Shown piece after piece: positions 4,605 to 42,067 of a DNA stretch of 47,565 bases. Each line of letters begins with the position of its first letter. Position 1 is the first letter of the stretch. Made by a program: the position numbers and the translations under genes. The notes under the pieces are model-generated. The model had not been told where the DNA came from and searched no databases. It saw only the letters and a list, made by a program, of their open reading frames with translations. The stretch is from a virus (Duplodnaviria; Caudoviricetes). The stretch is taken from positions 1-47,565 of IMG/VR virus record IMGVR_UViG_3300043220_000046; one strand, given 5' to 3'.

Positions 4605-4847
4605 ATGGCACGGGAGATGGACGTAGCGCCGGTCAAGACTCAGCCCGATCCGCTCGACCCCTGGGCGCACCGTTCGGACAACATGCAGTGTATGACCTGC
4701 ATCTTCTTCGTTGAAAAGGCGACGGCGCCGAACCTAAATTCCCCCCTCGGTCGCTGCCGGCGCCACGCGCCGACTATGAACGGCTACCCGATCGTGTTCC
4801 CGACCGACTGGTGCGGAGATCACAGGCTTGACGAGGCGAAGGTATGA
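4605..4847 (+). CDS. Small Cys-rich metal-binding phage protein
   Basis: CMTCIFF...GRCRRHAP...DWCGDH four-Cys pattern common in phage proteins. Confidence 0.8.
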   Translation: MAREMDVAPVKTQPDPLDPWAHRSDNMQCMTCIFFVEKATAPNLNSPLGRCRRHAPTMNGYPIVFPTDWCGDHRLDEAKV

Positions 4848-5104
4848 AACCCACCGACGAAGATCTCCGGAATCGGTTCTTCTACCACCCACCGCCGAAC
4901 CAACAACGCATCGACGATCACGCGCTGGTGTCGCAGTGGTGCTTCGAGCTCGCGGTGCACCTGCGCAACCAGTGCCCGGAAGGGCGCAATCTGAGCCTGG
5001 CGCTCACGCACCTCGAGGACACGCGGATGCGAGCAAACGCTGCGCTAGCTTGCGACTCACCACCGGAACCAGTCGAGCCGCCGAACACGGGTTCTGGTGG
5101 CTGA
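4844..5104 (+). CDS. Acb2/Tad1 hairpin-family protein (candidate cyclic-nucleotide sponge, anti-defence)
   Basis: NRFFYHPP...CPEGRNLSLALTHLEDTRMRANAALA resembles the R..ALTH.E...M..N helix of Tad1-type proteins. Confidence 0.7.
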   Translation: MKPTDEDLRNRFFYHPPPNQQRIDDHALVSQWCFELAVHLRNQCPEGRNLSLALTHLEDTRMRANAALACDSPPEPVEPPNTGSGG

Positions 5105-5855
5105 AACACGGACCCGCAAAGCCAAGGGCGGCATCCGTTCGGCACTCGTAGATCCGAAGGCGAAGCAGCGCCTCGAGAAGGCGGCTAAGGCTGCCGGCCT
5201 GGACCTCGAGGGCCTGATCAACCTGGTCGCCGACAGCGGCGCGCTCGCGATGCCGCAGGACGACGGCGTTACCGAGACCTACTCGCTCGAGGACCTCGGC
5301 GTGCAGATGCACGCGCAGATGCCCCCTCCGTTGGAACGGCCGGCCTGGTTCCTTGGCCTGGTCGACGCGCAACGGATCGCTCTGGTCGTGATGCTGCGTG
5401 CGCGCGGCTACTCGAGCGTGGTGATCGCTCGCGACTTCGGGATCGCCGACATCGAGGTAGGTCGGATCTACTCGAAGTATGCTGACGACCTCGGCGCGCA
5501 GGTGATCAACGTCCGGCTGAACACCCTGGTCGGCAACCTGCAGCTGGCGGCCGAGCGCGCCGGCGAGGGCGCGATGGTGAAGAAGGACTGGGGCACCTAC
5601 TGGCGCATCCAGAAAGAGATGATTGCGCTCCTGCAGTCGCTCGGGATCGTCAAGCAGGCCATCCGCAAGGTCGAAATCGCGCACAAGTTCGACGATCAGA
5701 AGACGGCCGAAGTCGATCAACTACTCGACCTCGAGCGCAAGAAGCGTGCTCGCCTCGAGGAGATCAAGCAGGCCGACTTCACGCTCGTCGATGAAGTGCC
5801 ACAGCTGTCGCTGCCGGCGGCGCCTGGTTCAATGGAGAAGCCCTTTGAAGAGTGA
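5097..5855 (+). CDS. terS: Probable terminase small subunit
   Basis: HTH-like RGYSSVVIARDFGIADIEVGRIY plus helical body; upstream of TerL in the same operon; assignment is by position. Confidence 0.55.
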   Translation: MAETRTRKAKGGIRSALVDPKAKQRLEKAAKAAGLDLEGLINLVADSGALAMPQDDGVTETYSLEDLGVQMHAQMPPPLERPAWFLGLVDAQRIALVVMLRARGYSSVVIARDFGIADIEVGRIYSKYADDLGAQVINVRLNTLVGNLQLAAERAGEGAMVKKDWGTYWRIQKEMIALLQSLGIVKQAIRKVEIAHKFDDQKTAEVDQLLDLERKKRARLEEIKQADFTLVDEVPQLSLPAAPGSMEKPFEE

Positions 5856-6654
5856 CACCGTCTACGTCGCGCCGTTCGTTGGCGAGTTCGGCTGGGAGTG
5901 CATGATGTGGGCGCCGTGGCTGCGCAATCAGAAGCACTGCCGCGCCAAGCCGTTCATGGTGCTCTGCGAATACGGCAAGGCGGCGCTCTACGAGGATTTC
6001 GCGAAGGTGATCGAGATCGACCCGATCCCAACGAAGAAGCGCGACTGCCAGCACGGCTTCGATGACGAGCGCGGCAAGTTCGATCGGCGCTTCTACGCCG
6101 ACGTGGTCTTCGCCGCGACCGCGGGGTTCCATCGCCCAACCCTAACACCGCTCGACTTGAAGGTGCTGTGGCCGGCCGACTACCCACCGACCCCGATAGG
6201 CGCGAAGCATCACTCGCTACATGTCGAGGTCGATGAGCCATACAACCTGATCGCGGTCCATGCTCGATCACTGGATCGCGTGCCGTTGCGCAACTGGTCT
6301 CCAGTCAAATGGGACGAGCTCGTCGACAAGCTCAAGTTCGAGGGCTACCACGTCTTCGCGATCGGCTCCAAGGGCGAAGCCCTGTGCCCTTCGGGTTGCG
6401 AGGACATGCGCGGGGCGTCTCTACACGAGCTCTCTAGAGTGCTTAGCCGGACCGATGCTGTCATCGGCCCGAGCTCCGGACCGCTGCACTTCGCCAACCT
6501 ATGCAAGACTCCTGTGGTCTGGTGGTCGGCCAACGGCAAGGATATCAAACGCTACTCGACCTACTGGAATCCCTTCAACTGTGAGAACGTCCAGGTGACG
6601 CGCTCATGGAAACCGACCATCGACGAGGTCCTACAATGCACGATGACTTTCTGA
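5845..6654 (+). CDS. Glycosyltransferase family 9-like (heptosyltransferase-like) protein
   Basis: RNWSPVKWDEL, DMRGASLHEL and VIGPSSGPLHFANLCKTP motifs; TTG start after GGAG. Confidence 0.8.
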   Translation: MKSDTVYVAPFVGEFGWECMMWAPWLRNQKHCRAKPFMVLCEYGKAALYEDFAKVIEIDPIPTKKRDCQHGFDDERGKFDRRFYADVVFAATAGFHRPTLTPLDLKVLWPADYPPTPIGAKHHSLHVEVDEPYNLIAVHARSLDRVPLRNWSPVKWDELVDKLKFEGYHVFAIGSKGEALCPSGCEDMRGASLHELSRVLSRTDAVIGPSSGPLHFANLCKTPVVWWSANGKDIKRYSTYWNPFNCENVQVTRSWKPTIDEVLQCTMTF

Positions 6655-7871
6655 TCCTCTCTATCGGCCGAACAGCAACCGCCTACTTCGCAGAAGTGCT
6701 CGGGGTCGATCACGAGCCGGCCGAGTTGAACGGCTCAGCTGTCTCGCCGAAGCACCTGTTCAGGATGACTACGGGCTGGAAGATCCCGAAGAACTACCGG
6801 GTGGTCATCCTGGTTCGCAATGCGGAAGCGCAGATGCTGTCGATCCTCAATCGCGCGGCCGCGCTCGGCGCCGGCAAGGTGACGATGTTCCGCGAGAAGC
6901 TGCCGGACTACCTGCGCATCCTCAACGAGCTCGTGCGCGACGGCGCTCAGATCTACTCGAGCGATGCTCTGCTCGCGATGGACGTCACGGAACTGTCGCT
7001 CTGGGCACGCGAAGCCCTCGGCGTCAATTCGATCAAGGTCACGGAGCGGCCGGACACCTTCCCGATCGTGCTCACCGAGCTCCCCCCGTGGGCCAAGGTC
7101 GCTGCGGCGAAGATGCAGAAGCACTACGACGCCTGGCTGAACACCGAGGCGCTCGAGTTCGATCCAGACGAGATCGATCCGACGCGGCACGAGATCATCT
7201 ACGGGGGCATGATTTACCGGATGGACTACGTGTTCCCGGCCGAGATCGCCGCGCTGCGGGCGAAGAAGAGCGGGCAGTTCCAGGAGCTCCCGGTCCTGCA
7301 GTGGCTCGCACAGAGGGAGTTGAAGGGCACCTACGTCGACATCGGCGCGCATATCGGCAACCACTCGCTCTTCTTCGCGAATCACTGTCCGTCCGACAGC
7401 GTGATCTCGATCGAGGCGCACCCGCAGATTGCCGAGCTCTGCGGCGAGAACCTGCGGCGCAACATGAATCCCGTGAAGGAGCGCGAGTGGTTCCTGATCC
7501 GGAAGGCGGCCTGGTCGAAGAGCGCGGAGACCGTGAAGATGGCGCCGATCCCGCACAACAACGCGGGGCACACCTGCATCAAGGACGACGGCGTGACTCC
7601 GGTCGAGACGATCGCGCTCGACGACCTGGCGCTGACCAACGTCTCCGTCATCAAGATCGACGTCGAGGATGTCGAGGTGCAGGTCCTCGAGGGCGCGATG
7701 CAGACGATCACGCGAGATCGGCCGGTGATCATCGCGGAGCGGCACACCGCGGAGCAACTCGCCGAATTCGAGGGTCCACTCCTCGAGCTCGGTTACAAGC
7801 GCACGGTCGAGTGGCCGGGCATCCACACTTACGCCTGGCTTCCAGGCGAGGAACCACAAGAACCACAATGA
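6636..7871 (+). CDS. Sulfotransferase-like domain fused to FkbM-family methyltransferase
   Basis: N-term ILSIGRTAT..HEP..ILVRN; C-term VDIGAHIGNHS and IKIDVEDVEVQVLEGA..RPVI. Confidence 0.8.
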   Translation: MHDDFLILSIGRTATAYFAEVLGVDHEPAELNGSAVSPKHLFRMTTGWKIPKNYRVVILVRNAEAQMLSILNRAAALGAGKVTMFREKLPDYLRILNELVRDGAQIYSSDALLAMDVTELSLWAREALGVNSIKVTERPDTFPIVLTELPPWAKVAAAKMQKHYDAWLNTEALEFDPDEIDPTRHEIIYGGMIYRMDYVFPAEIAALRAKKSGQFQELPVLQWLAQRELKGTYVDIGAHIGNHSLFFANHCPSDSVISIEAHPQIAELCGENLRRNMNPVKEREWFLIRKAAWSKSAETVKMAPIPHNNAGHTCIKDDGVTPVETIALDDLALTNVSVIKIDVEDVEVQVLEGAMQTITRDRPVIIAERHTAEQLAEFEGPLLELGYKRTVEWPGIHTYAWLPGEEPQEPQ

Positions 7872-8203
7872 GCAAAGCAGAAGTTCTCAGCAAGTCGATC
7901 GGCGGGACCGCGATCAAGGTCACGACGACCAGCGTCTTTCCCATCCACGTCCTCCCGGCGCAGAAGACTCGTGCGCGGATCTGCCTGCAGATCTCGAACA
8001 ACTACGAGACCGCTCACGTCGTGGAGATTCACTTCAACGGGCAGATGTCCGAGATCACCGTTCCGGCGCACGACTCGCGCAACTTCGGTCCTTTTGTTCT
8101 GCACGGCCAGGCCATCGACGGCACCGACCTCCCGAACAAGACCTTGTCGGTCAAGACCAATTGCGCCGATGTGCTCTTCGTCATGGGTGAGGTTTCGGAC
8201 TGA
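7868..8203 (+). CDS. Small beta-rich protein, paralogue of 36170-36547
   Basis: ATGA and TGATG overlaps with neighbours; S.SIGG.A...HV.P motif shared with the paralogue. Confidence 0.8.
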   Translation: MSKAEVLSKSIGGTAIKVTTTSVFPIHVLPAQKTRARICLQISNNYETAHVVEIHFNGQMSEITVPAHDSRNFGPFVLHGQAIDGTDLPNKTLSVKTNCADVLFVMGEVSD

Positions 8204-8952
8204 TGGGCGACCGGCTCGTGACGTTGGCGATGGCGGTCTACGGGCAGCCCAAGATGCTCGAGGTGTGGTTCGACACGCTTCGCAGCTACTCGAAGCCCAT
8301 GCTTGCCAGCATGGAGCTTCTCATCGTTGACGACTGCGGCGATCCTGCCGCGGTCGTCCCTGACGACATCCAGGCGCTGCTACCGTGTCACCTGTTCAGG
8401 GTGACCGAGAACATCCCCTGGAATCAGCCAGGCGCACGCAACCTGGCGCTCGATCACTGCCTCACTGACCTGGTGCTCTTCGTCGACCCCGACATGGTGT
8501 TCCCACTCGGGATGATGACGATGATGCTCGACGCCGGCCTGGCGCTCGAGCGCGGCAACGTGATCCGCTTCCAGTTGAAGCATCGAGGAGGGCGCAACGC
8601 TGGCGCGATCGACCCGAGCTCGCCGAACACCTGGTTCTTGCACGCCAAGGACTTCCTCGAGGTGGGCGGCTACGACGAGGACTACTCGGGCCACAAGGGC
8701 TGGAGCGACGTTCAGCTGCTCGACGTGATGCGGTCCGTCTACAAGATCAGGCACGATCCGAAGTTGCATGCCGACTTCTACAACATCGAGGAGGTCCCGG
8801 ACGCCATGGTGACCACTCTCGACCGCAGCCACCGGGCCAACAAGGCCCAGCGGTTGCTCAAGGTGAAGGAGGCTCGCATGATGGGGGGCTGGCCGAAATG
8901 GATCCAAACTCCGAGAAAGAGGCTTCGGTTCGAATGGCGCAAGCTCCTGTAG
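8203..8952 (+). CDS. Glycosyltransferase family 2/7-like (GT-A fold)
   Basis: LIVDDCG, NQPGARNLAL, FVDPD (DxD) and GGYDEDYSG..SD motifs. Confidence 0.9.
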   Translation: MGDRLVTLAMAVYGQPKMLEVWFDTLRSYSKPMLASMELLIVDDCGDPAAVVPDDIQALLPCHLFRVTENIPWNQPGARNLALDHCLTDLVLFVDPDMVFPLGMMTMMLDAGLALERGNVIRFQLKHRGGRNAGAIDPSSPNTWFLHAKDFLEVGGYDEDYSGHKGWSDVQLLDVMRSVYKIRHDPKLHADFYNIEEVPDAMVTTLDRSHRANKAQRLLKVKEARMMGGWPKWIQTPRKRLRFEWRKLL

Positions 8953-10733
8953 AACTAGGAATCGACGACCTTCGCTCCGAGAGGATCCGTCGGCAGCGCG
9001 AGTGGTATCTGTCCGATGACGGGTTCCTCGACTTCGTGCGCGACAGCGGCGCGGCGCCCGACGCGGTCTACGAACCGCACGGCCGCTATTGCCAGTCCTT
9101 GATCAGCTGGCACTCCACTCCAGACCCAGACGTCGTCGGGGTGTTCCGCTTCAAGGGGAAGCTGGTGCTCTGGCCGCGTGGCTCGTTCAAGAGCCAGGTC
9201 TTCAACGTGGGGCACGTCGCATGGTTGATCGCCCGCGATGCCAACCTCCGAATCCTGGTCACGTCGGAGACGAACAAGCAGGCCATCAAGTTTGTCAAGG
9301 AGACGATGAAGATCGTCGAGTCGGAGTGGTTCAAGGAACTCTTCGGTGATCACACTCAGGGTGAGTGGAAGCCTGGGGCTGGCCTGTTCACGAGCTCGCT
9401 TCGCACGCGCAAGGGCGTCAAGGATCCGACGCTGTGCGCCTCTGGCGTGGGTGAAGTGCAGACCGGCGCGCACTGGGACTTCGTCTTCATGGACGACATC
9501 TGCTCCCAGGAGAACACGAAGACACCTGAAAGCATCGAGGCGCTCTGGAATTGGTTCGGCGAGATCCAAGCACAGTTGGACCCGGGCATCCTCGCTCCAG
9601 ACGGTGTGACGATCTGGGGCGGCAAGCTGTTCATTATCGGCACGCTGCACCACTACAGCGACATCTACTGCCGGCTCATGAAGGACGCTGACATCATCGA
9701 AGGCTTTGAGGTCTCGAAGTTCGGCTGGTCCGATCCGATCGTTGATCCTCGCAAGACAGCGGAAGAAGCGCCGGCCAAGCTGTTCTTCCCTGGTCGTTTG
9801 ACCAGAGCGTTTGTTGGTGAAAAGAAGAACCGATTGCCGCCACGGCTCTACGCCTGCTTCTACGAGAACAGGCCGACGACCGGCGAGCAGCAGCTGTTCA
9901 GGCCCGAGTATTTCCGCACCATCCCGGACGAGAACATCCCGAGCGCGGTCTGGACCTACATCCTCAGCGACTTCGCGTTCATCGCCGACGAGAAGAAGAA
10001 CAAGGGCCGTGCTGATCGCACGGTGTTCTGGGTGGTGAGCATGGACTGCAACCGGGTCGCCTATGTGCGCGACATCGTGATCGGTCGATGGAAGCCGAGC
10101 GACTCCGTGCGCATCGCGTGCGACCTGTGGAACCGCTACCAGTGGGCCAACCTTCACGGGATGACGGTCGAGAAGACGACCTACAACGAGCTCCTCTCGT
10201 CGGTGTTCGAAGAGGTTCGCCGACAGACGCACGTCATGCCGCGGTTCATCTCAATCGGCGGCCGTAGCCAGGAGATCAAGGACATGCGCATCGAGGCCGC
10301 TGAGCCTCGGTGGCGTGGCGGCGACATCTACTTCGCGCAGTCGGTCCGCGACAATTGGCGCAAGTGGAAGCCCATGTTCGACGAGATGACCGAGTGGCCG
10401 TTCTCGTCGCACGACGACGTGCCCGACGCGATCAGCGATCTCGACAAGAAGGACGAGAGCGACCCGCACAACCCGATCTTCTACTGCCCAGCCCCTCCCG
10501 TCGGCTGGGCGCAGCAACCAATCAAGCGATTCCAGCCTGATCTGATCAATGGACAGTTCAACCCTGAGCGCGATTACCCTGCTCGGGAGTTCACCAAGGC
10601 CAACCAGCAAGGTCACGACCTATGGCATCCCTCAGACTCTACGACTCGACACGGCCAGCAAACCGGCCACCCCAGCGAGGACCAAAGCAGTATCTTCCAG
10701 AAGCAACCGCCGCCGCCAACGCGGTGGCCATGA
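8934..10733 (+). CDS. terL: Terminase large subunit
   Basis: Walker A-like PRGSFKS, Walker B FVFMDD, IIGT coupling motif, nuclease HDDVPDA; alternative start at 8898. Confidence 0.92.
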   Translation: MAQAPVELGIDDLRSERIRRQREWYLSDDGFLDFVRDSGAAPDAVYEPHGRYCQSLISWHSTPDPDVVGVFRFKGKLVLWPRGSFKSQVFNVGHVAWLIARDANLRILVTSETNKQAIKFVKETMKIVESEWFKELFGDHTQGEWKPGAGLFTSSLRTRKGVKDPTLCASGVGEVQTGAHWDFVFMDDICSQENTKTPESIEALWNWFGEIQAQLDPGILAPDGVTIWGGKLFIIGTLHHYSDIYCRLMKDADIIEGFEVSKFGWSDPIVDPRKTAEEAPAKLFFPGRLTRAFVGEKKNRLPPRLYACFYENRPTTGEQQLFRPEYFRTIPDENIPSAVWTYILSDFAFIADEKKNKGRADRTVFWVVSMDCNRVAYVRDIVIGRWKPSDSVRIACDLWNRYQWANLHGMTVEKTTYNELLSSVFEEVRRQTHVMPRFISIGGRSQEIKDMRIEAAEPRWRGGDIYFAQSVRDNWRKWKPMFDEMTEWPFSSHDDVPDAISDLDKKDESDPHNPIFYCPAPPVGWAQQPIKRFQPDLINGQFNPERDYPAREFTKANQQGHDLWHPSDSTTRHGQQTGHPSEDQSSIFQKQPPPPTRWP

Positions 10734-11128
10734 TCCTGGTCGAGAAGTATGGGCAGCAGCAGTGGATCCTGCAGTGCATGAACGGCATTCAGGAGTGCGT
10801 CCAGAACAGCGTGCAGATGTTGTCGGGCGCCGCTCCGGTGCACAACGCGGTCGGTCTAGCGCAGGGTGGTCGATACACTCATCCGGCGCGCACGGCCGCT
10901 GAGATTCAGGCAACGCAAGAGCAGGCGGCCGTCGCTGGGATGGTCTCGCCGGCGGCACCAGGTCAGGCCGTCGCGGCCGGCCAGGCGGAGCAAGCCCTTG
11001 CCGATGGTCAACTGGATATGTTCGCGCTTCTGCAGAAGCAGGCTGGCCTGCAGGATCCCGCGTCACAAGGAATGCCAGCCCAGGAAGCGCCAGTGAATGA
11101 GCCCGGAAGCGACGAGTGGATCCTTTGA
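10730..11128 (+). CDS. Hypothetical Gln/Ala-rich protein (132 aa)
   Basis: ATGA overlap with terL stop. Confidence 0.75.
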   Translation: MILVEKYGQQQWILQCMNGIQECVQNSVQMLSGAAPVHNAVGLAQGGRYTHPARTAAEIQATQEQAAVAGMVSPAAPGQAVAAGQAEQALADGQLDMFALLQKQAGLQDPASQGMPAQEAPVNEPGSDEWIL

Positions 11129-11309
11129 GTGTCGGCAGTGCGGACGCTCGCTGAAGACTGTGGTCGGTGGGCAGACGTGGTTCTGCTCGAAGGCCTGCAA
11201 CAAGAAATACGTGGCCAAGAAGGCCAAGGAGGGCATGCGTGCTCGATATCATCATCCCGGCGCACAAGCCGAACTACGTCCGCCTCGCGTATCGAGGTCT
11301 GAATCCTAA
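11097..11309 (+). CDS. Small zinc-finger protein (CxxC...FCSxxC)
   Basis: CRQCGR...WFCSKAC; covers the gap between flanking genes but overlaps both. Confidence 0.6.
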   Translation: MSPEATSGSFECRQCGRSLKTVVGGQTWFCSKACNKKYVAKKAKEGMRARYHHPGAQAELRPPRVSRSES

Positions 11310-11886
11310 CGGTGCTCTGACAACGAGCACGATCCTCGGATCCCTGCCCTCAGCGGTTGGTCGGGTTCCGGTTGCTGGCAAGGTGATCCTCTCCCTCGAG
11401 GGTGGCAAGCATCAGGACTTCGAGGCGGCCGAGGCCTACCTGTCAACGCAGAACCTGGCCTGGCAGGTCGTTCACTCGAGCGAGGTCACTGGCTACTACC
11501 AGGCGCTCATGCGCGGCCTCGAGCGAGCTACATCCCCACTCGTGGCGGTGGTGCCGCCCTGGGTGGAGATCACGGACGACCTGTGGGTTCAGCGCATGAC
11601 CTGGCCGATGACCAAGGACACGACCGCCCTACTCTGCGGGACCTGGGGTGAGCCTGGCCCGGCGAGGGACCTGGCCCCGCACATCGTCAAAAGGCGCGTC
11701 TGGCCAGGTGGCGATGCGTTCATCGCTCGCCGGGAGGCGCTCACTGACATCTTGCGAATGTCGACGGCAGACAATTTCCGCGAGTCCCTCGCCGGCGCGA
11801 ATGGCTGGCAACTCTGGGCGCACCCTGGGATTCGGTTCAAGGTCCTCGAGCACGAGCAGCATGAAGCAAAGCAGACGACTCGGTAG
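11239..11886 (+). CDS. Degenerate GT2-like (GT-A fold) protein lacking DxD
   Basis: AAGGAGG then GTG; DIIIPAH start and GYYQALMRGLERATSPLVAVV match GT2 layout, but PPW replaces DxD. Confidence 0.65.
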   Translation: MLDIIIPAHKPNYVRLAYRGLNPNGALTTSTILGSLPSAVGRVPVAGKVILSLEGGKHQDFEAAEAYLSTQNLAWQVVHSSEVTGYYQALMRGLERATSPLVAVVPPWVEITDDLWVQRMTWPMTKDTTALLCGTWGEPGPARDLAPHIVKRRVWPGGDAFIARREALTDILRMSTADNFRESLAGANGWQLWAHPGIRFKVLEHEQHEAKQTTR

Positions 11887-13237
11887 CCGCTCGAGCGACA
11901 CGGTGAGGGTCGCGATCGCCGACGACTCACGGCTCATGTTCTCGGACGACTTTCGCGAGGGATGGGCGTGGGGCTTCACGGCTCTCGGTTGTGAAGTGCA
12001 ATCCTTCGACGTCGCCGAGCTCCGGAAAGGCCTCTCGCTGGGCGCGAGCTCGAGCGTTCTCTCGATGGGTCGCAACCAGGCGGCGAAACCTCTCGGCGAC
12101 ATGATCGCCAACTGGGGCCCCGACATCGTCTTCGCTCACCACGGCCGCGCGGCGTCGAACCCGATGTTCCTGGATCGACTCAGAGCTCGAGGCATCAAGG
12201 TAGCGACCTACCTCTGCGACGAGCCCTACGAGACCGGCGAGACTGCCCTATACAGCCCTTCGTTCGACTTGGTCTTCACGATGGACCCCTGCACCGTCGA
12301 GGCCCATAGGCGGTCGCGTGCGGATCGCAAGGGTGTCTTCTACCTGCCGCCCGGCGTGCACACCGACCACTTCAAGCCGCGGCCCTACTTCGATGAGGAC
12401 GGCCATCAGGTCCGCGAGCTCTCAGCCCTCTTCATCGGCAACGGAACGCTTGTCCCGAGGCTCGACTACTTCGAGCCGGTCAACCGGATCGTCGCGGGGG
12501 CCTGCTTCCAGTATCTGCGCAAGGCCGTGTCGAAGGCTCACAAGCGGGAGTGGATCCCCTACTACAAGCACCCGCACTGGTATAGCAACTGCAGGGTTGG
12601 CCTCAACGTCCATCGGGCGCCGTGGATCACCAAGGAATGCTTCCGGGACCGCGTCACCAATCGATACGCCTCAGCCCCTGTTCCCGCCGGCTTCAAGATC
12701 CCGCACACACCTCCCCCGCAAGGCTGGGGGACGGGCTTCTGGAATGACGGGAACCTGCCGGCGGCGCACATCAATCCGCGCTTCCTCGAAATGGCGGCGT
12801 GCGGAACGCTGGTCGTCAGCGACAACCATCGGAGCGAGCTCGCTCGGATGTTCCCAGGAGCGCCGCAGGCGAGCGATCCAGATCACTACCTCGAGCTCGT
12901 GCTCTACTACCTCGAACACCCAGAAGAAGCTGAGGCGATCGGCGAGAAATGCTCCTACCTGATTTCAAAGCGGCACAGCTACAAGCACCGAGCCGCGGAG
13001 GTTCTAGTCCGTGCTGGCTTGCAGGACTCGCTGCCGGCCGCTCAGTTTTCATCCTTGGGGCTGCCGGAGGACTGGTTGACTCTCCAGGACTTGCCTTCGC
13101 TCGGGATCAACTCGTCATCGGAACCAACTGGACCCTCCGAGCGTTGGAGCCCTCGATTTGGCATGTCGTGGACCGAGCGGTCTATGATGCCGAGCGACAT
13201 GCAATCGGTGGATGCTCCGACGCCCTGGTTGTTGTAG
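11861..13237 (+). CDS. CgeB/YkvP-family glycosyltransferase (GT-B)
   Basis: DEPYE, FDLVFT, NPRFLEMAACG, YYLEHPEEAEAIG and HSYKHRA motifs. Confidence 0.88.
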   Translation: MKQSRRLGSRSSDTVRVAIADDSRLMFSDDFREGWAWGFTALGCEVQSFDVAELRKGLSLGASSSVLSMGRNQAAKPLGDMIANWGPDIVFAHHGRAASNPMFLDRLRARGIKVATYLCDEPYETGETALYSPSFDLVFTMDPCTVEAHRRSRADRKGVFYLPPGVHTDHFKPRPYFDEDGHQVRELSALFIGNGTLVPRLDYFEPVNRIVAGACFQYLRKAVSKAHKREWIPYYKHPHWYSNCRVGLNVHRAPWITKECFRDRVTNRYASAPVPAGFKIPHTPPPQGWGTGFWNDGNLPAAHINPRFLEMAACGTLVVSDNHRSELARMFPGAPQASDPDHYLELVLYYLEHPEEAEAIGEKCSYLISKRHSYKHRAAEVLVRAGLQDSLPAAQFSSLGLPEDWLTLQDLPSLGINSSSEPTGPSERWSPRFGMSWTERSMMPSDMQSVDAPTPWLL

Positions 13238-13758
13238 CGAACAAGGGAATCTTCGGTCAGGGCGCGTTCTCGATGCGTGGCGCGGCCTTGGCTCGGATGA
13301 TCGGGTCGAAGAAGATCAATCCCTACCAGATCACGATCGCCAAGGCGAAGGGGACGGTCCTGTGCCCGGACGGGGTCAGGCGCAACGGGATCACCGACCC
13401 CTACATGCCTGAGGACCTGGAGGCGGAGTTTCACCCAGGGGGGAACTCGCTCTGCTACACGATCCAGACGGCGCACCTGATGGGGTCTAAGGACATCCTC
13501 TGCATGGGTTTCACGCTCAAGAGCGGTGGCCGCTACTTCTTCGGCACGGAGAAGAATCCGATCACCAAGAGGGCTTCGATCTACGACACTCACCGTGCGC
13601 TTGGCTGGCTGTCCTGGTATGAATCCCAGTGGCCGGGCCGGGCTCGCCTGATGGAAGGCTGGGGCGGACCCGTCTACGACGTGTTGCAACAGGTGACCCA
13701 CGAAGAGCTTCGAGAGCAATTCGGGGGACCGAAGCCTGAACAGGAGTGGATCGTCTAA
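12949..13758 (+). CDS. Maf/MptE-like (DUF115-type) glycosyltransferase-like protein
   Basis: GRSVFILGA, VIGTN and GGNS..TIQTAHLMGSKDILCMGF motifs. Confidence 0.75.
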   Translation: MLLPDFKAAQLQAPSRGGSSPCWLAGLAAGRSVFILGAAGGLVDSPGLAFARDQLVIGTNWTLRALEPSIWHVVDRAVYDAERHAIGGCSDALVVVANKGIFGQGAFSMRGAALARMIGSKKINPYQITIAKAKGTVLCPDGVRRNGITDPYMPEDLEAEFHPGGNSLCYTIQTAHLMGSKDILCMGFTLKSGGRYFFGTEKNPITKRASIYDTHRALGWLSWYESQWPGRARLMEGWGGPVYDVLQQVTHEELREQFGGPKPEQEWIV

Positions 13759-17960: not shown

Positions 17961-18029
17961 CCGGAAGAAACCGCTCACGACCTGGTGCGCTGCCTTGGTG
18001 CGGGGAACAACCAACCCCAATCCAATACC

Positions 18030-19055
18030 ATGGCTTTCGTAGGCAGTCTCGGAGTTCTCAACTCCTTCGATGTCGGCACAGGTAACCGCGAGGACCTGCT
18101 CGACATCATCACCAATATCAGCCCGATGGACACGTTGTTCCTCTCGGGCTTCGAGAAGGTGCCAGCATCCAACATCACTCACGAGTGGCTGGTGGACATC
18201 CTGGCGACCTTCGGCGACCCGGACGTAGGCAATGCCGACGTGCAGGCCGTCGCAGAAGGCAGCGATGCCGACTTCACCACGCTTGTTCCACGCAAGCGAT
18301 TGTGCAACCTGACGCACATCATTCGTCGGACCTTCGACGTTTCGGACACCCAGCGGGACATCAACACCGCCGGCATCCGCGACGAATACGTCTACCAGCT
18401 GCGCAAGGCTGGCATGGAGCTCGCTCGGTTCATCGAGTTTGCTCTCGTGCACAGCCAGCGTCAGTTCCAGACGGCGCAGGGCAACACGGGCGGCGTGCTG
18501 CCGCGCAAGATGGATGGTTTCGACGCCTACGCGGCGGCGAGCGATCCGACCTGCGCGACTACTCTCGGTCTGAGCTCTGACGAGCTCGGAACCGTCACCC
18601 TGGTAGGTGGCGCTTCGCCGGCGAACTGCATCGATGAGTGCACACTCAACGAGCACCTGCAGGCGATGTGGGAGAAGGGTGCGCAGACCGACACGCTCTG
18701 GTGCAATGCTGTCCAGAAGCGTTCGCTCTCGAACCTGACCCTCAACCCGAACTCGCAGATTCGCTACAACATCAATGCGAACGATCGGACCGTGATCAAC
18801 ACGGTGGACTACTACCAGTCCGACTTCGGGACCCAGAAGGTCTATCTGCACCGCTACCAGAACAACGCGCGCATCGCGACTGCTGAGGCCAACAAGCTCC
18901 GCATCGCTGTTCTGCGTCCCGTTCTGGCCGTCGAGCTCGCCAAGCTCGGCTCGTCGACGAAGGGCATGATCGAGTGGGAGGGCACCCTCGAGGTTCTCGC
19001 CCCCAACGCGATCGGCTTCATCGACACCCTCTGCACCGGCGTTGCCGGCTGCTAG
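18030..19055 (+). CDS. Major capsid protein (SU10/DUF5309 type)
   Basis: REDLLDIITNISP.DT.F, HEW..D.L, AEGSD, YQL.KA..EL.R.IE, SDFG and EGTLEV motifs. Confidence 0.93.
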   Translation: MAFVGSLGVLNSFDVGTGNREDLLDIITNISPMDTLFLSGFEKVPASNITHEWLVDILATFGDPDVGNADVQAVAEGSDADFTTLVPRKRLCNLTHIIRRTFDVSDTQRDINTAGIRDEYVYQLRKAGMELARFIEFALVHSQRQFQTAQGNTGGVLPRKMDGFDAYAAASDPTCATTLGLSSDELGTVTLVGGASPANCIDECTLNEHLQAMWEKGAQTDTLWCNAVQKRSLSNLTLNPNSQIRYNINANDRTVINTVDYYQSDFGTQKVYLHRYQNNARIATAEANKLRIAVLRPVLAVELAKLGSSTKGMIEWEGTLEVLAPNAIGFIDTLCTGVAGC

Positions 19056-19114: not shown

Positions 19115-19678
19115 ATGGGTGCTGGCAGATTCAGTCTTGGAGGCCTTCAGCGAGTAGAGGCATTCCCACCGTTGGTCTGTGAGACCCTGGCCCTCGGGCG
19201 CTCGTTCTCTCTCGTGACGGACTTCATCGATCTGGATCCTCTGAGCCTCGAGGAGTCCTTGTTGGTGGTCGAGAACACAATCTACGGACTGCTATCGATC
19301 GACACGTTTTCGGCGGCTGTGGCTGGCGGGGCTATTGCTGGTGCGCCAGGAACAGACTTCGCGGTCCTGTTTCGGGCGCTCTTGAATCCCACCGAGCACA
19401 ATGCTCCGGCCGAACTCACTGCGGTCGCCCTCAACCAGGCGGAGGATCGCATCCAGGGATTCAAGGGGAACGCATTTCAGCACGACGGGTCGAACACGGC
19501 CGGGCCAGTCGATGGCGCTTTGGTGGGGACAGTTTCGTTGTCGCGGGGAAGCACGCTGCCGCCACTCAACACAGGAATCATCCTGAAGAAGGGTGATGTC
19601 TTCGTCATCTCGGGAGTGAACGAGGGCATCTTGACCCCGGTTAGTGTGTCGCTGCAGGTTCACGTTTTGGACGTATAG
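19115..19678 (+). CDS. Putative head decoration / minor structural protein
   Basis: GGAG RBS; beta-rich; directly after capsid gene. Confidence 0.7.
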   Translation: MGAGRFSLGGLQRVEAFPPLVCETLALGRSFSLVTDFIDLDPLSLEESLLVVENTIYGLLSIDTFSAAVAGGAIAGAPGTDFAVLFRALLNPTEHNAPAELTAVALNQAEDRIQGFKGNAFQHDGSNTAGPVDGALVGTVSLSRGSTLPPLNTGIILKKGDVFVISGVNEGILTPVSVSLQVHVLDV

Positions 19679-19682
19679 ACCC

Positions 19683-20144
19683 ATGCCTAGATTCAGTTCA
19701 TTCATCTTCCCAACCGGCTTCCAAGCTCTGGCTCAGGCGTCCGGTAAGCAGGCGATCCTGGCTGTCGCAACGGGCGACAAGCATGGTCTGATCATCGACG
19801 ACATCGTGTTCTCTACGGATGCGTCTAGCCCGGTGAAGGTTTGGGTCAAGGTGGCCAGTCTGCCGGCGGCTCATGGCCTGACGGCTACGGTCACTGCGGC
19901 ACTCACCAATCGAAGCAAGACCGCTTTCGCCGGGACTGCGTTTCGATCCAAGGGGACCATTGCTGTGAATGCACTGGCTGGAGATCTGGCCTTCCAGACG
20001 TTCGCGATCGCCGGATCACTTCGGTTGAGACAGCTACGAAACCTCATCCTACCCCCGGACAAGGTCATCGTTGTGGAGGCCGAGACCGCGGCCGACTGCT
20101 CGGTTGGCGTTGTCCTCAGCGCCCACTATGAGCCCCACGCATGA
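19683..20144 (+). CDS. Putative beta-sandwich structural protein
   Basis: ATG at 19683; Ala/Val/Thr-rich strands; structural module context. Confidence 0.7.
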   Translation: MPRFSSFIFPTGFQALAQASGKQAILAVATGDKHGLIIDDIVFSTDASSPVKVWVKVASLPAAHGLTATVTAALTNRSKTAFAGTAFRSKGTIAVNALAGDLAFQTFAIAGSLRLRQLRNLILPPDKVIVVEAETAADCSVGVVLSAHYEPHA

Positions 20145-20335
20145 GAGCCAGGCCGTGCGAGCGATGCGGTTCTATGGCCGAGGTGACCAGGCAGAAGAAG
20201 CTGCAGATCACCAAATGCTCGCACTGCAAGCACAAGACGATCAAGCACATCATCAACAAAGGCTGCGGAGGCTGAGGCGGTCGCAACCGCCTGCGCCGTG
20301 TGCGCCGCGCCACTAGGAACCTGACCATCTCATGA
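20141..20335 (+). CDS. Zinc-ribbon protein with in-frame UGA (20273-20275) in a CGGU motif; 44 aa if terminated, 64 aa if recoded
   Basis: MRARPCERCG...KCSHCK...KGCGG*GGRNRLRRVRRATRNLTIS; ATGA overlaps at both 20141 and 20332. Confidence 0.7.
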
Positions 20336-20757
20336 GATACCCGTTCAAGTGCTACGACTGCGAGACCGATCAGACGATCGACACTCGCCCACTCCATCCC
20401 CCGAAGGCACCGGACTGCCCGGCCTGCGGCGAAGCCATGGACCGCGTCTACGGCTGCAGCATCAACACGAGCTCTTGCCAGGACGTGGACTTCATCCCCG
20501 AGAAGGATCGGATTGCCTGCGGCGCCGGCGACCAGAACATGACGTCCGGCCAGGCGGCAGCGATCGAGAAGAAGCACGCCGCGCACAACGAGCAGACCAG
20601 GCGCGACCTGGCCGACGGCGGCAACCGGGGGCAGATGAAGAAGAAGATGCAGATCCCGGCCGCGCTCTACCATGGCAAGATCAAGCAGACCGGGGACCGC
20701 AACTACTGGGATGACTCGAAGAACCGGAACCGGCACAAGTCCTGCCAGGTGAGCTAG
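20332..20757 (+). CDS. FmdB-like zinc-ribbon protein
   Basis: MRYPFKCYDC...CPACGEAMDRVY N-terminus. Confidence 0.8.
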   Translation: MRYPFKCYDCETDQTIDTRPLHPPKAPDCPACGEAMDRVYGCSINTSSCQDVDFIPEKDRIACGAGDQNMTSGQAAAIEKKHAAHNEQTRRDLADGGNRGQMKKKMQIPAALYHGKIKQTGDRNYWDDSKNRNRHKSCQVS

Positions 20758-20761
20758 CCCC

Positions 20762-22399
20762 ATGACCGAAGCCTTCGAAGACAAATTCAACCGGCCCGAT
20801 GCGGTGGTGGGGACCAACTACACCGTCCCATGCGGCAGTGCGCATATCTTCGACGAATCGGTGCTCCCGGTGAAGGTCGAGACCATCAACGGCTCAGAGG
20901 TCCTAGAAACGCCCCTGGAGCGATGCCAGGTCATCCTCACCGCTGAGGTCCTCGACAGCCCCGACCAAGCTCTCAGGGCGGTCTGGGGCCACGACGCGGT
21001 CGTCCCAGCCGGTGTAGACACTCCGCCGAGCTTCACGATCCTCGCCAGGGCCACAAAGGACCCCCTGGTGATTGACCTGGCGCCGCCGGACGAGTCGCCA
21101 GACTGCTACGACCAGTTCTACGGGCTCCGGGTCACCTGCCCTCTTGACGGCTCGAGCCCGATCCTCAAGCTGATCAAGAAGCAGCCGAGGAACCGGGTGT
21201 CCGGGCTATCGAACCCGAGCTCGGTCGAGCCTGACCTTGCCCAGGTCTTGGCGTCGGTGGTGATCATCAGCCAGGCGCTCAACGTGGACCCGACCTGGGA
21301 CAACACAGGCGACCCACCCTACCGGGGCTTCTGGCAGGACATGCGTCTGCGCATCCGCCGCGGCGACAACGAGGTGGTGCTCGAGGCGTTCCTCAACGAT
21401 CGCTACTTGAACAACCCGATCCTCACCTACACGGATCACCAGGACCCGCTCTGGTCGACGATCGGCGAGCCAGGCTTTGAGTTCCTCTCGGCCGTGCTCT
21501 CGACCCAACCTGCAGGCGCATCGCCGTTTGCTCAAGGCGCCGCGGCGCTCATGCGCTGCACGCTGTTCTCGGTCCAGACGGTGAAGGACGTCCGTCGGCC
21601 GAACATGGTGATTCCGTCGAACCAGTTCACCTACGCCCGCGTCGTCGATCGCGTGATCACGCTCGTCGAGAAGAACGGCGATGCCAAATACACGGCCACC
21701 AACTCAGGCGTAACGAAGCGCGAGACCTACCTCGGCTTCGTGCTCGAGGCTGAGGGTGAGATCATTCGCGAGGAGGGCTACTACCACTGGCTTCGTCGAA
21801 CCCAGCGAATCTTCCTCGAGGATGGACAGGACACCTACGAGCTCCCCGAGAACGTCGGCGAGATCCAGATGGTTCGGCCAGGAAACTTCGTCTCGGGTCC
21901 GCTCAGTGAGATGGAGCCGTTCGACTTCCATCAGTCGATCGCCGGTCGGCTGAGCTCTGGCGGCAAGCCAGCGATTTACATCATGGCGCCAGAGACGGTG
22001 AACAACCGACCGGCGATTCGCTTGTTCCCGACACCGCTGATCTCCTCGATCGCGGTGAACGACGACACCCTCAGTCCCTTCCTCGAGATTGACTATTACG
22101 CGCGCCAGGTGTTCCCCAGCGATCCGTCGATGCAGATCCCGTTCGTCCCGCAGCAGGACATCGACGTTCTGACCTACGGGGCGACGGCGCATGCTCTCAC
22201 GCTCGACACCGACGACGCCAACTCGCAGCGCATGCTCGCCATGTATATGGGTAAGCGCGCTGGTCTGCGCCGCAAGAACAACCGCAAGGTGTCAGGTCGC
22301 CGGACTGTCATGCGATCGGCCGCCGACGTCTTCGTTCCAACCGAGGGGACTCGGGTCCCGACTCTCCGAGCAACCCAGCTGCAGAACTTCCTCCTATGA
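20762..22399 (+). CDS. Head-tail adaptor with ~290-aa N-terminal beta-rich extension
   Basis: C-terminal half W.RRTQ..L..GQDTYELP..G.P..Y..IRLFPTP..IDYY..P..P..DVL.YGA is podoviral adaptor-like. Confidence 0.7.
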   Translation: MTEAFEDKFNRPDAVVGTNYTVPCGSAHIFDESVLPVKVETINGSEVLETPLERCQVILTAEVLDSPDQALRAVWGHDAVVPAGVDTPPSFTILARATKDPLVIDLAPPDESPDCYDQFYGLRVTCPLDGSSPILKLIKKQPRNRVSGLSNPSSVEPDLAQVLASVVIISQALNVDPTWDNTGDPPYRGFWQDMRLRIRRGDNEVVLEAFLNDRYLNNPILTYTDHQDPLWSTIGEPGFEFLSAVLSTQPAGASPFAQGAAALMRCTLFSVQTVKDVRRPNMVIPSNQFTYARVVDRVITLVEKNGDAKYTATNSGVTKRETYLGFVLEAEGEIIREEGYYHWLRRTQRIFLEDGQDTYELPENVGEIQMVRPGNFVSGPLSEMEPFDFHQSIAGRLSSGGKPAIYIMAPETVNNRPAIRLFPTPLISSIAVNDDTLSPFLEIDYYARQVFPSDPSMQIPFVPQQDIDVLTYGATAHALTLDTDDANSQRMLAMYMGKRAGLRRKNNRKVSGRRTVMRSAADVFVPTEGTRVPTLRATQLQNFLL

Positions 22400-41772: not shown

Positions 41773-42067
41773 CGGCGGATTCCTTGGTTTCGGGATGGGT
41801 GAGCTCGAGAAGCTCGAGGATGAAAGGCACCGCCCGCAATGGGTGGTGTTGTAGGTAGAGCCCGACCTTCTGCTCTCGCGTGCAGTCCGTGTAGAGCTCC
41901 TCGGTCAGGGCTTCGAAGGATTCGAATTCAGGCATGGGATGGTCTCCTCCGCAGTCGCGGGGGGTGTGCTTGAAAGTGGTTTCGTTACAGGCGCCGCACG
42001 GGCACGTCGTCTCGGCTGCTCAACCCGACCAGGTCTTGCCGCAGCGCCAACACGGCCCGTGACTCAT
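41756..42067 (-). CDS. Cys-rich ORF with in-frame UGA (42022-42020); 103 aa if recoded; internal ATG 41935 gives a separate 59-aa protein
   Basis: MSHGPCWRCGKTWSG*AAETTCPCGACN...DCGGDHPMPEFESF...; ATGA overlap at 42064-42067; GGAGG before ATG 41935. Confidence 0.6.

Follow-up and report, generated by a model that had tools for sequence, protein, structure and literature searches.

Does a small zinc-ribbon gene of an SU10-type podophage read an in-frame UGA as selenocysteine (Sec)? The question arises in the window, that is, the whole stretch of 47,565 nucleotides analysed here, a 47.6 kb phage record with the portal gene at 13746, the major capsid gene at 18027 and the adaptor gene at 20762. 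Between the latter two, the first-pass annotation had noted an unlisted ORF with a UGA in a CxxU motif and had proposed a phage selenoprotein made with the Sec machinery of the host. The genes and codons concerned are:

18027..19055, plus strand: SU10-type major capsid protein, the anchor of the family (PF17236, E 7e-65)
19683..20144, plus strand: upstream gene, its stop overlapping the start of the recoded gene (reading frame)
20141..20335, plus strand: putatively recoded zinc-ribbon gene (reading frame, family alignment, AlphaFold model)
20156..20227, plus strand: zinc-ribbon knuckles C6-x-x-C9 and C26-x-x-C29, the four Cys invariant in 25 of 25 aligned members
20264..20266, plus strand: Cys42, the partner Cys of the CxxU in the window, specific to the window member
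20273..20275, plus strand: in-frame UGA, predicted selenocysteine codon (TGA in 26 of 26 distinct contexts, in contig L051 and in pattern scans)
20332..20757, plus strand: downstream FmdB-like zinc-ribbon gene, its ATG overlapping the true stop of the recoded gene (profile matches)
20762..22399, plus strand: SU10 adaptor (head-tail) gene (PF24175, E 1e-10)

The reading frame proved to be as annotated. The ATG at 20141 and the stop of the preceding gene share the letters ATGA, and such coupling is found across the window genome, where 18 of the 43 listed genes have (A/G)TGA ends. The frame encodes CERC, then CSHC, then KGCGG and arrives at the TGA at 20273-20275. Behind it, 19 codons are open up to a TGA at 20333-20335, which overlaps the next ATG (20332). 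The gene thus has 64 codons if UGA 45 is a residue and 44 otherwise. It is laid out as a four-Cys zinc ribbon, a Gly-rich linker, the predicted Sec45 and a basic tail of 19 residues. AlphaFold, run with a 25-member alignment, modelled a four-stranded zinc ribbon for residues 3-36 with a pLDDT of about 90, and the tail with low confidence (pLDDT about 56). A frameshift fusion to the next gene was ruled out, the frame being closed by TAG in the window and by TGA in the related genome L001. TGA is a normal stop in the window genome, since it ends 25 of the 43 listed genes; the remaining 18 end in TAA or TAG.

We checked the TGA against the assembly. A Logan contig of run X1 (depth 51) had no differing letter over 19600-20800; the run is from marine sediment and may be the source of the window DNA, so that this agreement is not independent. 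A related contig, also in run X1, reads K-G-P-G-G-TGA-G-G-G. No RNA datasets holding the window sequence were listed.

The adaptor gene at 20762..22399 places the recoded gene inside the virion block. No family match was obtained for the upstream gene, and those of the downstream gene (PF09723, E 7e-4; TIGR02605, E 8e-3) were both below cut-off. In L020, L032, L023, L040 and L049, the N-terminal zinc ribbon of the downstream gene is apparently absent and its C-terminal part is kept. A perfect 12-bp palindrome lies across the stop/start overlap (20327-20338) and recurs in L001; it may merely reflect the coding of Ile-Ser-stop and Met-Arg. Elsewhere in the window, a glycosyltransferase cluster with an FkbM methyltransferase lies ahead of the portal gene (5623-13237), possibly for virion or DNA glycosylation. 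An Acb2/Tad1-type anti-defence sponge domain is found at 4844-5104 (E 2e-13), and a RadC/JAB domain gene at 2140-2673.

Is the ORF a gene at all, and does its UGA recur in relatives? Protein searches, three word-indexed and one full HMM search over 1.84 billion representatives, yielded 45 distinct small homologues, the window's own product among these; two long HMM matches (1,861 and 1,587 residues, with short repeated matches) were left out. All 45 end at K-G-x(0-3), which corresponds to the UGA position, and none continues there with a Cys. Searches of the tblastn type that started from the window protein, or from the protein encoded next to it downstream, gave no IMG/VR relative. Small-protein searches added two further genomes, L001 and L002/L003, and with the capsid protein as anchor we obtained 45 related viral loci. 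Using an iterated HMM on translations with all stops masked, we located the gene in 32 of the 45 loci, shortly after the major capsid gene. Among the 13 others, 12 end at most 58 nt from the capsid match and L030 has 308 nt; L033 was counted as a miss, yet its record carries the gene elsewhere. A scan of whole records found one copy in each of 15 records, 14 of which were already known carriers. Against GTDB genomes, the family alignment gave no match and the capsid query a single contig. Among 50,697 annotated phage records, there was no homologue and the nearest capsid proteins are at most 33% identical; the gene is absent from two regions with such distant capsid proteins. The members themselves are diverse, with pairwise protein identities of 26-89% (median 38%).

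At the equivalent position, all 26 distinct contexts that could be read as DNA have TGA, and never TAA or TAG. The genome-bin contig L051 likewise has TGA. We also ran two codon-blind pattern scans in which the codon was specified as TGN, the first over 38 of the 64 parts of the collection and with flanking DNA for 80 of its 120 loci. TGA was present in 8 of 8 distinct family matches, two of them new. Matches with Cys or Trp at this position were rejected, scoring at most 9.1 bits on the N-terminal family HMM versus at least 43 for members. No homologue with a Cys version was hence found among 45 database homologues, 26 DNA-read members and 198 codon-blind pattern matches, and the usual proof by a Sec/Cys pair is missing. 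A Cys homologue is a common criterion for prediction, and no requirement of the Sec mechanism.

Behind the UGA, relatives keep an open frame of at least 10 codons. Mostly 15-21 codons long, this tail has 10 codons in the shortest case and more than 59 in the longest; long tails are found in L023 (45 codons) and L049 (more than 59). Lys and Arg mostly make up 30-50% of the residues. In the window, L001 and L002, the tails all end in R-N-L-x-I-S, written with different codons (Arg AGG/CGC/AGA, Leu CTG/TTG, Ser TCA/AGC), and one 3-nt indel is found among the three. By the first-start rule, the tail's stop overlaps the next start (-1 or +2) in 25 of 27 rows. The gene that follows is usually an FmdB-like zinc ribbon; in L002, the tail ends in TAG and another gene lies downstream. 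Between subgroups the tail is poorly alignable, and where it is alignable, these comparisons show a tail conserved as a predicted protein. The putatively recoded gene is thus, as judged from its relatives, real and conserved, one of a phage family. The SaoL selenoprotein family was recognised through a similar aligned truncation at UGA (10.1101/2022.07.06.499078).

Two hairpins follow the UGA in the window:

20275..20292, plus strand: competing UGA-proximal hairpin (folding)
20288..20309, plus strand: bacterial SECIS-like hairpin (hairpin scan, loop-core count, folding)

The SECIS-like hairpin had been described as GCGC-CGUGU-GCGC with its loop 21 nt past the UGA, and this is what we found at 20293-20305. 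Its upper stem pairs 20293-20296 with 20302-20305 and its lower stem 20288-20290 with 20307-20309. The loop CGUGU occupies 20297-20301, with G26-U27 at 20298-20299. In a published model of the bacterial SECIS, the loop has 3-9 nt with a G in its first two positions, the stem has 4-16 pairs, the spacing from the UGA is 16-37 nt and the energy at most -7.5 kcal/mol (PMC13188914). We applied this model as coded by ourselves, with controls from the same phages. The window hairpin agrees with it (-8.5 kcal/mol, spacing 21, loop CGUGU), as does E. coli fdhF (NC_000913.3), our positive control. A SECIS prediction had been suggested as a check of the first-pass annotation, and it came out in favour: the coded model was passed by 21 of the 26 members, whereas of the controls 24 of 87 TGAs at gene ends and 77 of 300 Cys/Trp codons in frame did so. 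The window hairpin alone is no stabler than shuffled sequences (z -0.4 to +0.8), and the case for Sec hence rests on the family.

Of the 26 family members, 16 have a spacing of exactly 21 nt. The loop core consists of GU or GG between two complementary bases: C-GU-G in 14 members, G-GU-C in 10 and the GG form in two. A paired N-G-[GU]-N core on a stem of at least 3 pairs is present at +23..+32 in 25 of 26 members. The same pattern follows only 4 of 87 ordinary TGA stops and 353 of 10,745 sense codons, and if the tails were recoded synonymously, 5.2 of 26 members would be expected to show it. We defined this core once the family was known, and as the members are related, their counts are not independent events. 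In the MAFFT alignment the two loop classes are offset by 3 nt, and the pair counts given here come from our own script. The capsid tree mixes both loop classes, but at unsupported forks. A swap between C-GU-G and G-GU-C alters the protein (Arg-Val/Ala versus Gly-Arg) and involves codons of minor use, CGT with 12% of the Arg codons and GGT with 16% of the Gly codons; L006 and L023 have the core in other reading frames. These observations point to a constraint on the RNA. The loop of fdhF holds GGUC, which equals the G-GU-C core of the family, and in fdhF G23 and U24 are invariant loop bases, G23 being a named SelB contact (PMC8659212). Conservation of the loop G likewise served as a test in PMC13582414.

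The stability of the hairpin, in contrast to its loop, hardly exceeds what the protein's own demand would bring about: compared with synonymous recodings, the mean z is -0.43, with 16 of 26 members negative. With 12 nt masked, the hairpin is the dominant structure of the ensemble in no more than 13 of 26 members. In the window, the probability of the upper stem is 0.11 unmasked and 0.58-0.65 with 12-15 nt masked, as a ribosome would do. The competing hairpin, which had been raised as a caveat, does exist at 20275-20292; it is not conserved and leaves the upper SECIS-like stem free of overlap. A fold of at most -5 kcal/mol at +3..+22 was seen in 6 of 26 members, the window's being by far the strongest. 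A search with Rfam did not find a SECIS and gave chance matches only.

UxxC and CxxU are the usual selenoprotein redox motifs (PMC13188914). The CxxU that the first-pass annotation had pointed out is present in the window (Cys42), but it is no motif of the family, with a Cys at -3 in only 1 of 26 members. All 26 members have exactly one Cys within -8..+10 of the UGA, at +3 in 12, +7 in 6, +1 in 3, +4 in 2, +6 in 2 and -3 in 1. The relatives are mostly UxxC, and the window is the sole member in which the 10 codons after the UGA include no Cys. A Cys at most 8 codons after the UGA was found in 25 of 26 members and after 33 of 214 ordinary TGA stops with an open frame. A partner Cys that shifts along a flexible tail suggests a Sec-Cys pair. 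Taken together, our alignments show that the divergent members of this phage family have kept the UGA, the open tail, the core of the hairpin and a single Cys nearby. With TGA, tail and hairpin kept in the relatives and the assembly in agreement with run X1, neither of these two checks refuted the first-pass reading, and the proposed use of host Sec machinery for a protein of the virion block gains support.

How else could these observations be explained? A programmed readthrough independent of SelB would make the UGA leaky by means of the hairpin, have it decoded by a near-cognate tRNA (Trp or Cys) and so set a ratio of short to long product. Readthrough of stop codons is known in phages. An open and conserved tail agrees with it as well, and Sec is unproven by any Cys homologue. 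We nevertheless regard it as improbable, because the loop sequence rather than stability is conserved and matches the GU loop read by SelB at SECIS spacing. Furthermore, the base after the UGA is not conserved (G in 11 members, C in 6, A in 6, U in 3), the codon is never UAG or UAA and the Cys partner always adjoins the UGA.

Still less probable, and indeed very unlikely, is that the UGA is a true stop of a 44-residue zinc ribbon and the following 57 nt an RNA signal, such as an operator or leader of the next gene. Every database gene call ends at the UGA, the tail is poorly alignable between subgroups and modelled with low confidence, and a protein-binding hairpin ahead of a gene is plausible. 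A true stop would be expected to drift to TAA or TAG, with which 18 of 43 window genes end, yet TGA stands in 26 of 26 contexts. Moreover, the stop that ends the tail overlaps the following start in 25 of 27 rows, and the tail is left intact by synonymous substitutions and by indels that keep the frame. The position of the hairpin follows the UGA and not the start of the next gene, and L002 retains the hairpin ahead of a different gene. Finally, a genome-wide reassignment of UGA (table 4 or 25) or a sequencing error, for which only the open tail would speak, is effectively refuted, as TGA ends 25 of 43 listed window genes and the recoded gene's own tail, long genes are open under table 11, and the TGA recurs in 26 distinct contexts of separate assemblies and in run X1.

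The conserved UGA and the SECIS-type hairpin in the gene and its relatives thus make a selenium-containing protein very likely. In detail, the window gene very probably encodes a 64-residue selenoprotein with Sec inserted by the SelB of the host, a conclusion drawn from sequence comparison. Host SelB would bind the GU loop of the hairpin, 21 nt downstream of the UGA at 20273, and deliver the Sec-tRNA, whereupon the UGA would be read as selenocysteine. The ribosome would then continue to the true stop, finishing a protein of 64 residues, and would thereby be placed at the start of the next gene.

Since ARAGORN found no tRNA genes in the window and 28 loci, the Sec machinery would be the host's. 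Which host this is might be indicated by the GTDB bin G001 (Deltaproteobacteria/Myxococcota), which includes the 2.3 kb contig L051 with a capsid gene and the recoded gene. The bin holds selA, selB, tRNA-Sec and a UGA-containing selD over cut-off; its phage contig, however, is probably mis-binned and of little weight, because it has 59% GC versus 38-44% for seven loci of the bin. The trinucleotide correlation is negative, and the loop core of the family is absent from the selD hairpin of the bin. In the L051 capsid gene, we noted a run of N with a frame break. The RadC of the window gave no host clue.

What could such a protein do? Tentatively, and with somewhat less than even confidence, we suggest that the flexible basic tail of the zinc ribbon acts with its Sec-Cys redox pair in virion assembly. 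Its target could plausibly be the conserved Cys of the clade's capsid protein. The capsid residues Cys 93, 176, 201, 205, 336 and 342, which include a C-terminal C-x5-C, are kept in 24-26 of 26 relatives, and the capsid may possibly be disulfide-linked or metal-binding. Two distant capsid proteins (phiM5, ctKR88), whose regions lack the gene, have none of these Cys, a contrast that comprises two genomes and is not a test. Alternatively, the protein may be a redox-switched nucleic-acid binder by virtue of the basic tail, a metal-binding protein or mainly a selenium-sensing coupler for downstream genes. One may go further and picture a podophage clade with a core, Sec-only virion-assembly gene without cellular counterpart, whose Sec-Cys tail sets the redox state of an unusually Cys-rich capsid protein and whose phages are confined to Sec-using hosts. 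UGA and hairpin would then also couple the expression of downstream head-tail genes to the selenium status of the host, as the overlapping stop would be reached by Sec-inserting ribosomes only. As a whole, we consider this wider scenario rather doubtful.

Further candidates for recoding were seen in passing. On the minus strand of the window, an ORF at 41936-42067 with a TGA at 42020-42022 starts on an ATGA overlap with an ExoX-like gene and encodes CWRC, the in-frame TGA and then CPCGAC, and its frame continues into a gene of 59 codons that has a ribosome-binding site of its own. At +24 lies a 5-pair stem with a C-GU-G loop core; cores of this type are found near about 4% of all window TGAs (51/1,373). 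The letters agree with run X1, and no homologue was found in 32 related records. We regard this ORF as a candidate for which Sec, a nonsense mutation or chance may account. In the relative L092 (G025), two small ORFs at 5428 and 6763 on the plus strand each contain an in-frame TGA with good coding scores on both sides. The hairpins behind these TGAs have 8 pairs and GGUC or CGUG cores, and the two ORFs are candidates for recoded genes as well.

Compared with known systems, the phage gene resembles SelB-read genes with a SECIS inside the ORF, such as E. coli fdhF. It shares with them the in-frame UGA, a coding-region hairpin 16-37 nt downstream, a small apical loop with GU or GG near its start and the UxxC/CxxU context. 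In fdhF, the loop bases are G23-U24, in the phage family mostly G26-U27. In contrast to those genes, the phage gene is a conserved virion-block gene for which no Cys homologue and no Rfam SECIS match were found.

The FmdB family (TIGR02605) likewise comprises small four-Cys zinc ribbons with a predicted Sec. FmdB-family zinc-ribbon selenoproteins were predicted in GOS, with 807 Cys homologues (PMC2398784), and their motif is given as UxxU (PMC13188914). TIGR02605 matched 6 of 8 members of the recoded gene family with 10-16 bits and two not at all (cut-off 31.3), the best match of the ribbon having an E of 0.008 at 16 bits. The phage family differs in its K-G-x-G-U linker, its basic tail and its phage capsid context. 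NF041197, a dual CXXC motif small (seleno)protein, has a similar size of about 55-65 residues, two CxxC motifs and a predicted Sec, and matched members with at most 17.3 bits (cut-off 40) over the first 33 residues or fewer. Its own motif is RxU or GxU, and its Sec, judging from the name CxxC_Se_CxxC, lies between both CxxC; the Sec of the phage protein would follow both. Beyond these, Pfam and NCBIfam gave sub-threshold zinc-ribbon matches only, PHROG no family and a PDB sequence search generic zinc ribbons only.

In the literature that we could search, which omits most subscription papers, no phage-encoded selenoprotein was found described. The main text of a 2026 inventory of 119 prokaryotic selenoprotein families does not contain the words 'phage', 'virus' or 'viral' (PMC13188914). 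The same holds for the text of the BSepDB paper (PMC13326102), the database tables of which could hold prophage entries, and the accessible part of 10.64898/2026.09.15.751765 names no phage selenoprotein. If true, our reading has several consequences. A phage family with a bacterial SECIS would extend Sec use to viruses of bacteria and show that gene callers truncate this gene everywhere, as in 45 of 45 database entries. The gene would also be a host marker for an uncultured phage clade, since the host must use Sec, and its 26 members would represent a natural set of short SECIS variants. The viral selenoproteins named in a review are two poxvirus glutathione peroxidases, of molluscum contagiosum and fowlpox (PMC8310308). 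With these, the phage gene would share the reliance of a virus on the Sec machinery of its host. The poxvirus selenoproteins are cellular enzymes that animal viruses have captured, and their SECIS elements are eukaryotic. The phage family, in contrast, has no cellular homologue found by sequence, carries a bacterial-type SECIS and lies among morphogenesis genes. The recoding mechanism as such is known; what appears to be new is the protein family and the fact that bacteriophages carry it.
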